Notes: generated by a model from the letters alone, not told the origin. Counted from the first letter of the stretch, positions 13,206 through 17,800 are shown. The stretch: DNA of 44,117 nt from Verrucomicrobiota bacterium (GCA_016190065.1 JACPRI010000298.1:1-44117); one strand, 5' to 3'. Made by a program: numbers and translations.

Positions 13206-14273
13206 ATGAATCAGAATTCTTTTTCCTTTGGCATGCGGCACTTGTTGGCTGCCTTCGTTTGGCTGGGCGCAGTGACGAGCGCTTGGGCTCAGTCTTCGAC
13301 TGGTTACGTTGAGACCGGGGACGTGGCCCGAGAATTCACGCTCAAGAACCGCAAGACTGGAGAACCTCTCCGGTTGAGCGATTACGCGGGCAAGATTGTT
13401 GTGCTGGACCTCTTCGCGTATTGGTGAGGCGCTTGCCAGTTGCTCTCGCCGGTCGTCGAGAAAGAAATCAATAAATACTACAAAGCCAGGGAGGGGAATC
13501 CCGCCGGAATTCAGGTCGAAGTGCTGGGTGTCAACACCGACCAGACCAGTTCGGACAACACGGACGAATTCATCGGTGCCGTGGGCTTTGAGGTCGTGGC
13601 GGATGATCCGGACTGGGTGACGTATGGTCAATTCGGCCCCGGCGGCGCGGCGTCGCGTTACGTGATCATCAACGGTGTTGCGGACTCGCCGACGCACAAG
13701 CAGTGGGAAGTTCTGTTCAACGAAACGTTTTTCCAGCCTGGTGATGTCAGTCTCCTGCGTGCGCTGATCGACAAAGTCAAAACGCCCGTGCCCGCGCCGC
13801 CGAAGATTGCCGCGCAACCGCGGCCTCAAGAAGTGCTCCGAGGCGCAACCGTCATCCTCACTGTTTCCGCCACGGGCACGTCGCCGCTGTACTATCAATG
13901 GCACCGGAACGGCGTGCCCATTGCCGGCGCCACGGAGAAGTCACTCCTGCTGACCAACGTCAGTTTAGCCGACGCGGGCGAGTACTCAGCCACGGTCAGC
14001 AATCTCTTCGGCTCCGAAACGAGCCAGTCAGTTACGTTGAAGGTGACGGAGCCGCTTCGGCCTGTCCTTAGCGGCTTGTGGCGCCACGGCGACGGTGGCG
14101 TGGAATTTGTGATGAGCGGCGAGGCTGGCCGTGAATATCACATCGAATTCTCCACGGATTTAAGATTGTGGAAGCGCGTCGCAACGCTGCGCGCCAGCCA
14201 GGCGACTTCGATCTATCGGAATCCTGATACGGTCACAGAACCGCGAGGTTTCTTTCGCGCAGTAAGTGACTGA
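13206..14273 (+). CDS. Candidate selenoprotein: signal peptide + TlpA/redoxin domain (UGAC) + Ig-like domain + verrucomicrobial-type C-terminal domain; 355 aa, Sec at codon 74
   Basis: ORFs 13206-13427 and 13440-14273 are in one frame; LSDYAGKIVVLDLFAYW-TGA(13425-13427)-GACQ places TGA at the first Cys of CxxC; hairpin follows. Confidence 0.85.
13444..13461 (+). promoter_or_regulatory. Putative bacterial SECIS hairpin
   Basis: TCTCGCC-GGTC-GTCGAGA (6 pairs, one C/U mismatch); loop 23 nt after the UGA; identical in the paralogue. Confidence 0.75.
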
Positions 14274-14786
14274 GTTGGATCTAATCGCGAATCCACGCGG
14301 TGAAGTTGTTTGCACACCGCTTGCCTTCGCGATTTGAACGCAGGATTGCATGTGCAACAAAGTTTCTGGAATCCGAGAATGAGAGATCCTCGAACTCAAG
14401 ATGACGTGTTGTCCGGATCGAGGGTTGCACCGCGCTGGATTTGCCGATTTCGCTCATCATCGGTTGACCGGCATGATCCGAACAAAACCGCGTTTCGGCC
14501 TATGCCAGACGCTGTTTCCTCTGTGCTCTCCTGTTAAATTCAGCTCGGCGAGTTGGTGCTGGCGAAGAATCTCCTGGACCCATGCCGCATCGGACGCCGG
14601 AAGCGGCGGTTCGAGTTCGGAGCGGTAGCGGAGCAAGTGATAGCGTCCTTTTTCGTGGCAGTGATCGATCAGGGGTTGCAGCCTGGGATACCCAATCGCC
14701 AACCACGGAAAACCACCGGCGCCGTTATTCGGGGTTGTTTCCAGAGCGGAAACAGGTAGATTGTCGGCGGCTTGAGCGCCGAATTC

Positions 14787-15626
14787 ATGAAGCCAGTGGA
14801 CATTGCGAGATCCGAGCGAGGTTTTTCACCGGATGCCGGAAGGCGCTTTCTAGCTTTGTTTGTCTTGCTCCTGGCGTTCGCGCAGGTGACGCTCCCGGCT
14901 AAGGCCGCTTTCGTGCGTGTGGGGGAAATTGCCGCGGACCTTACGCTGAAAAAGCGCAAGACCGGCGAGGCCGTCAGCTTGAGGGATTTTGCCGGAAAGG
15001 TGATTTTCCTCGATCTCTTCGCGTATTGGTGAGGGTCCTGCCAATTGCTCTCGCCGGTCGTCGAGAAAGACATCAACGAATATTACAAGGCCCGGAACGG
15101 CACGTCGGCGGGCGTGGAGGTCGTCGTCATTGGCATCAACACGGACGTCACCAGCCAGGCGAATACGGACAATTTCATCCGGAACGTCGGCTTTGATTTG
15201 GTTCTGGATGATCCGGATTGGAAAAGCTACGCGCAGTTTGGCCCCGGCAATTCGGCGTCGCGCTACGTCATCATCAACGGCCTGGCCGACTCACCCAGCC
15301 ATAAGCAATGGGAAGTTCTTTTCAACCAGGTCTATTTTCAGCCGCGCCAGCCGGAAGTCGTCCGGGCCATCATCGAAAAGGTCAAGCCTCCCCCGGTTGC
15401 CGAACCGATTCGCCCCGTGCTCGGAGGCGTTCGGCGAATCGACTCCGGCGCGGTGGAGTTTGCGTTGAGCGGCGAAGTGGGCCGAAGATACCACGTGGAG
15501 TTTTCTACCGACCTGCGAAGTTGGACGCGCGTGGCCACGCTCACCGCCGGCGCGGAGAAAACCACTCACCGCGACGACCGCGCGGCTGCGGCGGCGCAAG
15601 GTTTTTATCGCGCCGTCAGTGAATAG
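14787..15626 (+). CDS. Candidate selenoprotein paralogue: signal peptide + redoxin (UGSC) + C-terminal domain, no Ig; 279 aa, Sec at codon 82
   Basis: LRDFAGKVIFLDLFAYW-TGA(15030-15032)-GSCQLLSPVVEK continues in frame into ORF 15045-15626. Confidence 0.85.
15049..15066 (+). promoter_or_regulatory. Putative bacterial SECIS hairpin
   Basis: TCTCGCC-GGTC-GTCGAGA; loop 23 nt after the UGA. Confidence 0.75.
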
Positions 15627-15630
15627 ACGG

Positions 15631-16671
15631 CTAGCGACCGCGCACTCGGATCGTAAAAGCATCCCGCGGGTTCATCACAAGCAACCCGCGAACCTCCTCG
15701 TCAGTGAAACCTTCCTTCTTCAGGGCAGGCATGAACGCGGTAAACAGCGGGTCAAACGGGCGAAAGTTTCCGCCCCCCGGTTCGCCCACGTGGTACCATC
15801 CCGCGTCGTGGGAAATGAGGACACGGTTCAGGAATCCGCGGTCGCGCAGCGTTCGGACGAATCTCACGTGCTGGTCGATGCTCTTGGGGGCGATCCCGTC
15901 AAACTCCACCCAGGCCCCGAGTTCGGCGGCTCTGGCGTGCAGGTCGGGATTGGATTCGCTTTGTGCGTGGACCCAAATGAACGCTTCGCTGCGCAAGCCT
16001 TCCTCCTGGATTACACGGAGTTCATCCAGCGCGGCGGCGCCGTTGCCCGTGTGGGCCGCGATGGTGAGCCCTGTTGCCCAGTGCGCGCGCGCCGCGGCTC
16101 GAACCAGTTTGCGATGAACTTCCGAGAGCGGCCCGGCATCGACGCCGATTTTCATGAAGCCGGGCCGAACGCCCGTGCCTTCAATTCCCTCTTTGGCCTC
16201 GCGAATCCAGCGCGCGGCAAGTTGATCCGCGGATTCTGTGAACGCGTGTTCCGGAAGATACTTGTTTTGCGCCGCGCCGTAATAACCCGTGTTCGTGAGC
16301 GCATTCAATCCAGTGGCGCGGGACAGGCGTTGCAGGAGCCTGGCATCGCGTCCGATGTAGGCCGGGGTGCATTCGACCAGTGTCTGACAACCAAGGTCGC
16401 GAATCCGCTGCAGATGCGGAAGCGCGACCTGGAAGACTTCGTCCGGCCGATAACGGGATTGGCTGATCTTCGCGGCGCCGATGAAATCGACCAGAACATG
16501 CTCGTGCGGCAATGTGATTCCAAGCTGGTCGGCACGAATCGGACCAAGAACAGTTTGAATCGCGCCTTGCGAAGGTACGGTCGGACGAGATCGACAAGAG
16601 CTGGCCTGGGCCACCAGACAACCAGTCCCGGCCAATGTGTCGCGAATGAATTCTCGACGTGTCGTGCTCAG
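15631..16671 (-). CDS. Phosphotriesterase-family (PTE/PHP) amidohydrolase, probably Tat-exported from a CTG start
   Basis: TVLGPI..LG.TL.HEH, LVECTP..IGRD, NTGYYGA, HTG, H, LISHDAG; upstream in-frame CTG-STTRREFI after AAGGA. Confidence 0.85.
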   Translation of the reverse strand: MSTTRREFIRDTLAGTGCLVAQASSCRSRPTVPSQGAIQTVLGPIRADQLGITLPHEHVLVDFIGAAKISQSRYRPDEVFQVALPHLQRIRDLGCQTLVECTPAYIGRDARLLQRLSRATGLNALTNTGYYGAAQNKYLPEHAFTESADQLAARWIREAKEGIEGTGVRPGFMKIGVDAGPLSEVHRKLVRAAARAHWATGLTIAAHTGNGAAALDELRVIQEEGLRSEAFIWVHAQSESNPDLHARAAELGAWVEFDGIAPKSIDQHVRFVRTLRDRGFLNRVLISHDAGWYHVGEPGGGNFRPFDPLFTAFMPALKKEGFTDEEVRGLLVMNPRDAFTIRVRGR

Positions 16672-16672
16672 T

Positions 16673-17542
16673 CTATTCCTTGGCCGCTTCGGCCTCCGCG
16701 ATCAGTTTCTCCAATTCCTCGTCCAATACTTCTCCGCCAGGAGAGCCGAGGTGCTGATGCCGAATGACGCCCTTGTGATCGATGAGGAACAGTGTCGGCC
16801 ATCCGCGAATGCCCCAGGCCTGGGCAATCGGACCGCCGGTGCTCCCTCCGTCCCACCACGAGCGCCAGGTGATGTTCTCTTGCTCCAGAACCTTCCGCAG
16901 CCGTTCCTTCGGGTCGCTGTTGACGCCCAGCAGGACAAACGGGCGGCCTTCCAACCGCTTCACGAGCGACCGCTCGTGCGGGTACATGGCCCGGCAAGGC
17001 CCTCACCAATCCCCCCAGAAATCCACCAGGATAACTTTGCCGCGATAATCGCTGAGCGTAAACTCCTTTCCGTCCACGTCTTCGCCTTCGATTTCCGGGG
17101 CGGCTTGGCCCAGTACGAACTTCTCTTTGGCTGAGGCCGCCGCCGTGATAGCTTTGATTTCCCCGCGAACCAACTCGACGATCTGCGGCGTGGAGTTTTC
17201 GCGGTCGGGCGAGAGCATGGTCAGACGAATGACCGAGCCTTTCGGGCCACGAATCATTTGCACGACCTTGCTCATGTCGAGTCCCGCGGTCTTGACGGCC
17301 GGTTGGTCACCCTGAGCGATGGCAATGATGCGGTCGTTGGCCTTGATCTTGCCGCTCAGTGCCGCCGGTCCGCCGGACAACACCTGCTTCACCACAATAC
17401 CATCGCCCTCTTTGTTCAAGGCGACTCCGATTCCTGCAACGTCCTGTCCGAGGCATTTCACCCCGGCCACAAGGCAAAACATCAGCATGAAAGCGGCGGT
17501 TCCGATGCACGTCTCGCCAGTTCTCAGAAGAATGGATTTCAT
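16673..17542 (-). CDS. Candidate selenoprotein: signal peptide + PDZ domain + TlpA/redoxin (UGPC); 289 aa, Sec at codon 180
   Basis: GIGVAL..PDZ..IRGPKGS; APEIEGEDVDG..LSDYRGKVILVDFWGDW-TGA(17005-17003)-GPCRAMYPHE..WPTLFLIDHKG in frame; AAGGA RBS before ATG 17542. Confidence 0.88.
16961..16978 (-). promoter_or_regulatory. Putative bacterial SECIS hairpin
   Basis: Perfect 7-bp stem CACGAGC-GGTC-GCTCGTG; loop 31 nt after the UGA. Confidence 0.78.
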
Positions 17543-17800
17543 ATGTTTCCTTAGTGAGTTATTTGCGACCTGGAGGCTCATGCCGGAAGGTAGCACAGAA
17601 TGATCGCGGCCAGGAAGAGGAATTGGCTTAGCTCTGAAGATGGACATCCGTGAAAACGATCATCCGGTCTGGAGTGGCCGATTCGGAGTCCAAGCGCGTC
17701 CCTGAAAACGCAGCCGTTCACGCCGGTCGGCGCCAGCATCCAGTGTCGAAACCGGGAAGTTCGCCTGTTGAGATCGACGCGGTTCAATCGCGCCGTTGCT

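Follow-up and report, generated by a model that had tools for sequence, protein, structure and literature searches.

How are three in-frame UGA codons read within a short segment of a verrucomicrobial genome, and what in the messenger RNA (mRNA) directs that reading? The segment lies in a 44,117-nucleotide (nt) stretch of DNA (Verrucomicrobiota bacterium, GCA_016190065.1, JACPRI010000298.1:1-44117), hereafter the window, which is contig C234 of a draft genome of 5.56 Mb, 59% G+C and 68% completeness. When TGA is translated as U (selenocysteine, Sec), three pairs of open reading frames (ORFs) fuse into three genes, here called genes 1, 2 and 3, and downstream of each UGA stands a hairpin with a GGUC loop. 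An earlier note on this DNA had proposed the hairpin as a candidate lineage-specific selenocysteine insertion sequence (SECIS). We find that the three hairpins are very probably standard SelB-binding bacterial SECIS elements of the Escherichia coli fdhF type, since the published consensus, the fdhF loop and the alignment of the SelB C-terminus agree, and that the UGAs of genes 1-3 are most likely read as selenocysteine.

UGA at a catalytic cysteine position in genes 1-3

Each of the three UGAs is spanned by the Pfam models AhpC-TSA, Redoxin and Thioredoxin. The motifs WUGAC, WUGSC and WUGPC (genes 1, 2 and 3, respectively) take the place of WCGPC in homologues, UxxC thus replacing CxxC, and in alignments with 40 Cys homologues U stands opposite the first Cys of WCxxC. 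Gene 1 encodes a signal peptide, an AhpC/TSA-Redoxin thioredoxin-fold domain that contains the UGA, an immunoglobulin (Ig) domain and a C-terminal domain, and it terminates at a true TGA stop (14271-14273). Gene 2 is a paralogue of gene 1 (59% amino-acid identity; Pfam AhpC-TSA at 28.7 bits, cut-off 26) that lacks the Ig domain. Gene 3 encodes a protein with PDZ and AhpC/TSA domains of the TlpA/ResA-like kind (Pfam AhpC-TSA 78.5 bits, cut-off 26; PDZ 40.3 bits). In NCBIfam the three products are nearest to ResA/TlpA-type thiol:disulfide oxidoreductases, below all curated cut-offs; no curated NCBIfam selenoprotein model scored above its cut-off among the nine proteins tested, the best being NF041054 WAxxUGC_long (39.7 bits, cut-off 300).

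The hairpins are listed in Table 1, with spacing counted as the nucleotides between the TGA and the first base of the loop. Their sequences and coordinates proved exact on re-checking, as did the spacings, the differing loop phases, the identical block shared by genes 1 and 2 and its synonymous flanks. The stems had been drawn as seven pairs each: this holds for gene 3, with its perfect seven base pairs (bp), and fails for genes 1 and 2, where the stem consists of 5 bp, a C.U mismatch and a closing C-G pair. The loop is read as CC[G GTC] in genes 1 and 2 and as C[GG TC]G in gene 3. In the alignment of genes 1 and 2 (498 nt, 68% identical) no exact run is longer than the 26-nt block that covers the hairpin (13440-13465 = 15045-15070), which is bordered by the synonymous differences GGC/GGG and CAG/CAA; the second-longest, of 20 nt, extends across the TGA.

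Table 1. Genes, in-frame UGA codons and downstream hairpins in the window
Feature	Position	Strand	Remarks
Gene 1	13206..14273	+	translated with TGA = U; Pfam AhpC-TSA 34.4 bits (cut-off 26), Ig_3 44.8 bits
Gene 1 in-frame UGA	13425..13427	+	residue 74, first Cys position of the CxxC site
Gene 1 hairpin	13444..13461	+	UCUCG-C-C[GGUC]G-U-CGAGA (DNA: TCTCGCC-GGTC-GTCGAGA); 23 nt past the UGA
Gene 2	14787..15626	+	start uncertain: ATG 14787 or TTG 14772
Gene 2 in-frame UGA	15030..15032	+	from sequence and translation
Gene 2 hairpin	15049..15066	+	identical to the gene 1 hairpin; 23 nt past the UGA
Gene 3	16673..17647	-	start uncertain: ATG 17647 or an internal one
Gene 3 in-frame UGA	17003..17005 (17005-17003)	-	residue 215
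Gene 3 hairpin	16961..16978 (16978-16961)	-	CACGAGC[GGUC]GCUCGUG; 31 nt past the UGA

The hairpin accompanies Sec and is missing from Cys relatives

A comparison with Cys orthologues had been set beforehand as a test of the SECIS proposal, and its outcome is clear-cut. Over 66 active sites in the fetched loci the hairpin is present in 20 of 26 Sec forms (16/22 UxxC and 4/4 UxxU sites) and in none of the 40 CxxC forms; the Sec rows include four from this genome, and one of the CxxC rows is probably not a thioredoxin site.

Gene 3 has a homologue in 116 of the 121 sampled genomes of the order, and the search returned 21 matches with one TGA at E <=4.5e-50. Thirteen one-TGA matches in the fetched loci and four forms with two TGAs make up a set of 17 Sec homologues from 13 genomes and 11 families. 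The gene 3 hairpin is kept in 16 of them, two with CAU for CAC, a synonymous change that turns C-G into U-G at the second pair from the base of the stem; the 17th (SQRSLAR) keeps the loop and the top three pairs, with the lower stem rebuilt around a bulged C. At the codon level, positions +10 to +14 (E, R, S, L, V) read GAG in 16/16, CGG in 17/17, TCG in 17/17, CTC in 17/17 and GTG in 16/16, while conserved residues beside the hairpin use two to five synonymous codons each: four for Pro +8, two for Lys +20 (AAA 9, AAG 7), four for Pro +21 and five for Leu +24. The codons of the hairpin are under RNA-level selection. The nearest Cys forms of gene 3 (52% and 47% identity) encode QERALA and HERAIA at this place and have no hairpin.

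Within the taxonomic family, nine of 13 genomes, this one included, have a match to genes 1 and 2. A 22-nt block with the hairpin is invariant in all five Sec copies of the genus, and the codons on either side of it differ. The Cys forms read DLFAYWCGPC at the place of the UGA and have no hairpin; they include metagenome-assembled genomes of Opitutaceae (43% identity), Pirellulales, Flavobacteriales and Saprospiraceae. A subfamily with the motif WUP[FY]C, found in five genomes of which one belongs to the same genus, carries a different hairpin, GCCG-C-CC[GUGA]GG-U-UGGC or CCGCC[CGUGA]GGUGG. The GUGA hairpin (L012, L015) resembles that of genes 1 and 2 in having a C.U mismatch below the top pairs, on an unrelated stem; this common mismatch may be due to chance or may mark a shared requirement.

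A gene elsewhere in the genome narrows the comparison to a pair of near-identical sequences. It lies on the minus strand of contig C40 (L004/L092), encodes carboxypeptidase-regulatory-like domains and F-L-U-P-S-C, and reads U-P-S-C-Y-A-D-C where 11 orthologues (L093-L103) read C-P-S-C-Y-x-D-C. The hairpin GAGCG-C-CC[GGUC]GG-A-CGCUC is present in the single Sec form and in none of the 11 Cys orthologues. One of these has almost the same peptide (KSAKSDAQG against KSARSDAQG in the Sec form); precisely in the segment that forms stem and loop, the two genes differ at three synonymous sites and by one Lys-to-Arg replacement. This looks like a recent Cys-to-Sec conversion, and no other sequence comparison ties the hairpin so cleanly to the UGA, as opposed to the protein.

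These data bear directly on the idea that the hairpins arise incidentally from conserved peptides (LSPVVE in genes 1 and 2, HERSLV in gene 3) and have no function as RNA, the UGA being decoded or terminated without them. The R, S, L and V codons, with 6, 6, 6 and 4 synonyms, would then have become invariant in 16-17 of the 17 Sec homologues amid freely varying flanks, the hairpin would be lacking from every one of the Cys forms counted above (0/40 and 0/11), and the same loop would have arisen in genes that are unrelated, code for unrelated peptides and read it in different codon phases. What speaks for the idea is that parts of the peptides recur in Cys forms (HER in L041, QER in L039, SPDVEK in L072) and that folding energies, given below, are no better than those of shuffled sequences. 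We consider it exceedingly improbable.

Enrichment of the hairpin at Sec candidates

We called a hairpin where a GGTC loop, 13-37 nt downstream of the codon, was flanked by a closing pair together with at least five consecutive pairs or at least six pairs out of seven, and counted background rates in ORFs of at least 300 codons. A hairpin follows 6357 of 1,624,673 in-frame codons of any kind (0.39%). The counts are 76/21,796 for TGG, 44/12,281 for TGC and 16/4,616 for TGT (60/16,897 for the two Cys codons together), and 9/2,117, 4/821 and 2/790 for true TGA, TAA and TAG stops. Because the rate after true TGA stops is about that after any codon, and no higher, the hairpin is no feature of TGA stops. 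That all three genes of the window, two of which are paralogues, have it is far beyond chance.

A screen blind to hairpins, which used a dicodon score with six-frame comparison and asked for coding signal on both sides of the TGA, returned 128 in-frame TGAs, most of which are gene junctions with a start codon just past the stop. Hairpins accompany eight of the 128, where about 0.5 would be expected, and seven of these eight fall at redox-type motifs: the three genes of the window and one gene each on contigs C293, C270, C40 and C317. The remaining one, on contig C2, has weak coding scores and is chance-like. Eight selenoprotein candidates from the screen and a ninth, SelD, added through a family search, were thus chosen blind to hairpins, and seven of the nine carry the GGUC loop; with a further gene on contig C358, found by the hairpin scan and then by homology, the count is eight of ten. 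The closing pair is C-G in seven of these eight, and the spacing of the GGUC hairpins in the genome ranges from 19 to 34 nt.

The genome scan for TGA followed by a GGTC hairpin that the earlier note had recommended did lead to further selenoprotein candidates, and only in combination with coding context. When CGGTCG hairpins were sought first, 245 turned up, with 107 TGA pairings that were mostly due to chance. A coding score based on codon usage alone was too noisy (245 candidates, mainly antisense frames) and was replaced by the dicodon comparison.

The genome encodes a full set of Sec machinery

A tRNA-Sec with a UCA anticodon is encoded on contig C149. Contig C141 carries both selB (PF09107 wing domain, 67 bits, cut-off 23.2) and selA (398 bits), and selD lies on the minus strand of contig C408 (369 bits) with one in-frame TGA. 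SelD is itself Sec-containing (S-C-A-G-U), and its hairpin, GACGCAA[GUG]UUGCGUC, located 33 nt past the UGA, does not have a GGUC loop. A reassigned genetic code was ruled out, as TGA remains the majority stop codon: it is the commonest true stop, ending 2117 of 3728 long ORFs.

Over its C-terminal 153 residues, SelB aligns with the Moorella SelB structures 1LVA (E 2e-11) and 1WSU (E 6e-11), the latter a complex of SelB with SECIS RNA, and with the E. coli SelB structure 2PJP (E 1.7e-4). By these alignments, the winged-helix region at the C-terminus of the predicted protein is canonical.

The presence of the full machinery is one reason not to take the TGAs for real stops, that is, for sequencing errors, pseudogenes or split genes whose downstream parts are separate or dead ORFs. 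It is true that such genes are truncated at the TGA in public gene calls, and that nearly all of 120 listed database entries for one of the families described below, GHCU, are C-terminal fragments. Nevertheless, the TGA is found at the same codon in the 26 Sec-form sites, from many genomes, the in-frame coding signal continues on both sides of it, and a single Pfam domain extends across each. To the real-stop explanation we give next to no probability.

Comparison with the E. coli element and the bacterial consensus

The loop of the window hairpins is the loop of E. coli fdhF, as the K-12 gene reads UGA, 18 nt, GCA[GGUC]UGC; fdnG and fdoG of the same strain have GCA-AGUC-UUGC. As in the window, the fdhF hairpin is part of the coding sequence, immediately 3' of an in-frame UGA, and has the GGUC tetraloop, and its 17-nt minihelix has an energy of -4.2 kcal/mol, equal to that of the hairpin of genes 1 and 2. 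The conserved and essential bases of the E. coli element are G23 and U24 of the apical loop, according to the review PMC8659212. A G-U step is common to all loops that we have seen (GGUC, AGUU, GUGA, GUG and AGUC). The differences from the E. coli element are modest: the closing pair is C-G in the window and A-U in fdhF; the spacing is 23 or 31 nt instead of 18, and longer and more variable, at 19-34 nt, across the genome; the bulged U (U17) is absent from gene 3, and genes 1 and 2 have the C.U mismatch instead; and the hosts are secreted thioredoxin-fold proteins, not formate dehydrogenases.

The consensus behind the bSECISearch model, as summarised in PMC13188914, comprises a loop of 3-9 nt, an upper stem of 4-16 bp, a G in the first two loop positions followed by G or U, a distance of 16-37 nt from the UGA and an energy of -7.5 kcal/mol or lower. 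All three hairpins agree with this consensus in loop size, stem, loop G followed by G/U and spacing; its energy limit is clearly reached by the gene 3 hairpin only. The unequal spacings of 23 and 31 nt, entered as a caveat in the earlier note, are harmless, as both lie inside this published range. An alternative description, a stem of 6-8 bp with a conserved loop G about 20 nt past the UGA, appears in PMC4605307, and the window hairpins fit it. A UGA at a catalytic Cys position and the full tRNA-Sec/SelA/SelB/SelD set are likewise both found here.

As to the host proteins, Prx-like (PF00578; UxxC or UxxU) and Redoxin (PF08534; UxxC) selenoproteins are among those listed in PMC13188914 and PMC1088965. 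Genes 1-3 share with them the AhpC/TSA-Redoxin fold and U as the first residue of the CxxC site. The domain architectures differ from those of the named models, in that gene 1 adds an Ig and a C-terminal domain and gene 3 a PDZ domain.

The element is not a new kind, and its GGUC loop is shared with a gammaproteobacterium. On this point the earlier note is not supported: it had put C[GGUC]G forward as a candidate lineage-specific element, which in its strong form would mean a private code that co-evolved with a divergent SelB and is distinct from that of other bacteria. The loop is indeed unusually uniform (GGUC in eight of ten candidates, closed by C-G in seven of eight), the spacing is wider than the 18 nt of fdhF, and gene 3 does without a bulged U. 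However, GGUC caps fdhF and AGUC caps fdnG and fdoG, all features fall within the general consensus, and the SelB C-terminus scores well above the PF09107 cut-off and aligns with solved SelB domains. Nor is the loop exclusive in its own lineage: SelD uses GUG, the WUP[FY]C subfamily, present in the same genus, GUGA or CGUGA, relatives in the GHCU family AGUU, and a DsbH-like gene on contig C323 has none that is clear. A private SECIS class is, in our judgement, very improbable. That part of the original proposal which took the hairpins for SECIS elements is, by contrast, strongly supported by the Sec/Cys split, the freezing of synonymous codons, the enrichment and the Sec machinery.

Several results weigh against reading the hairpins as SECIS elements. 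Genes 1 and 2 have a weak hairpin (-4.2 kcal/mol in isolation) with the C.U mismatch. When the segments after the UGAs were folded with RNAfold, a check suggested at the outset, the minimum-energy fold of the 66-nt segment of gene 2 omitted the hairpin, and the three 66-nt segments folded no better than shuffles (z of +1.46, +0.42 and -1.08 for genes 1, 2 and 3); the gene 3 hairpin in isolation has -10.5 kcal/mol. The 57-nt segments of genes 1 and 2 reach -9.5 and -8.3 kcal/mol, and again the hairpin is no part of the gene 2 fold. Rfam gave no SECIS or other credible match, either with gathering thresholds over the whole window or at E values up to 10 over 13300-17200. As genes 1 and 2 are paralogous, the window gives two independent cases and not three, and the related genomes in the Sec/Cys comparison are non-independent samples. 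The eight screen candidates were selected by eye from the 128, on the criteria of a redox motif and of a TGA not directly followed by a start codon, and two of the ten candidates are without a GGUC loop (SelD, with GUG, and the C323 gene, with none clear). Folding energy is thus uninformative here; enrichment and comparison carry the argument. A lower helix below the gene 3 hairpin, drawn by RNAfold in this genome, was set aside, as it is not kept in orthologues.

Proposed mechanism and meaning

While the UGA occupies the A site of the ribosome, the downstream hairpin, 23 or 31 nt away, would be positioned at the mRNA entrance. The C-terminal winged-helix domains of SelB would bind the G-U-containing apical tetraloop and deliver Sec-tRNA(Sec), and UGA would be translated as selenocysteine at the first position of the UxxC redox site. 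The predicted products are three secreted thioredoxin-fold (TlpA/Prx-like) thiol:disulfide oxidoreductases.

No new mechanism is involved. Genes 1-3 can be misread as six fragments unless UGA is taken as Sec; recognising it as such joins the fragments and thereby corrects the annotation of the locus. The loop that E. coli SelB recognises, a small tetraloop with G-U, has persisted in a lineage that is far removed and mostly uncultured, and therefore a simple scan for a TGA with a GGUC hairpin finds selenoproteins there. The locus and its relatives provide a natural set of SECIS variants with spacings of 19-34 nt, with and without mismatches, as well as one Sec/Cys orthologue pair in which the hairpin is nearly the sole difference; these could help in designing reporters and in annotating selenoproteins of this lineage.

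Other selenoprotein families exposed by the scan

The gene on the minus strand of contig C317 (L006/L082) encodes a secreted protein of 378 residues with T-G-H-C-U-G and the hairpin GAGAGGG[GGUC]CCCUCUC. All ten matches of this GHCU family, from eight of the 121 genomes of the order (relatives L083-L091), have the TGA; their loops are GGUC in four, AGUU in five and unclear in one. Its 7-bp stem shows compensatory changes from G-C to C-G at two pairs, 94% of the cells are paired as against 54-77% with slid partners, and the covariation score was reached by none of 500 shuffles. The 120 listed database relatives are, with few exceptions, fragments of 248-290 residues that start past the UGA. Pfam and NCBIfam gave no match for the family. 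The model of the full-length protein (predicted local distance difference test, pLDDT, 79.8; predicted template modelling score, pTM, 0.79) has an N-terminal thioredoxin-like domain and is nearest to ERp19, DsbH and DsbD-gamma (Foldseek E 2e-4 to 2e-2). Literature searches on the motifs GHCU, HCUG and GRCU returned only unrelated papers, a weak test that did not cover the supplements of selenoprotein catalogues (deep-Sep, BSepDB, PMC13188914), and a search on the selenoproteome of Verrucomicrobia returned nothing specific. Judging from the model and these searches, GHCU, with its vicinal Cys-Sec pair, may be a selenoprotein family not described before.

A paralogue of gene 3 on the minus strand of contig C358 (L007, ORF 824-2218) has two TGAs three codons apart, in U-R-T-U. 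Such UxTU forms were also found in three genomes of other families (L058, L040 and L059), as UPTU and ULTU. They have one HERSLV GGUC hairpin, located 31 and 22 nt past the two UGAs, and just 5' of it a conserved mini-hairpin, GGCC-NNNN-GGCC. One SECIS apparently serves two UGAs in this subfamily, as far as the shared arrangement can tell. The UxxU pattern, into which the paralogue fits, is already listed for Prx-like proteins in PMC13188914 and PMC2398784.

Taken in a wider frame, the SelB of the order would read a bulge-free, G+C-rich helix with an R-G-U-Y tetraloop at an unusually wide spacing of 19-34 nt, one hairpin sufficing for the two UGAs 9 nt apart in U-x-T-U, and the hairpin, used as a search key, would expose families cut at the UGA, including the possibly undescribed GHCU. 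We put this generalisation forward tentatively, as a possibility that has slightly less than an even chance of being right as a whole.

The C323 gene (L002/L104, plus strand) encodes a DsbH-like thioredoxin with W-U-G-A-C and good coding signal on both sides of the TGA, and five further genomes have Sec forms of it. No hairpin that separates Sec from Cys was found in this family (six Sec and eight Cys forms). Two of the GGUC-bearing candidates from the screen belong to other families: an AhpD/CMD-family candidate (C270:17021-17347, L005) has C-E-P-U and UCCAGC[GGUC]GCUGGA, and a Thioredoxin_7 candidate (C293:5006-5596, L003) has W-U-G-W-C and GUUGAGC[GGUCU]GCUCAAC.

Surroundings of genes 1-3

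The neighbours of genes 1-3 encode an MFS transporter and a TPR/PD40 protein, and a phosphotriesterase-family gene sits between genes 2 and 3; no selenium-metabolism genes were found among these neighbours. Genes 1 and 2 stand in tandem (window positions 13206-15626) and have a C-terminal domain in common, EFSTDLR.W.RVATL...GF.RAVS. The Ig insert is found in gene 1 only, where it is placed between the thioredoxin fold and this shared C-terminal domain.

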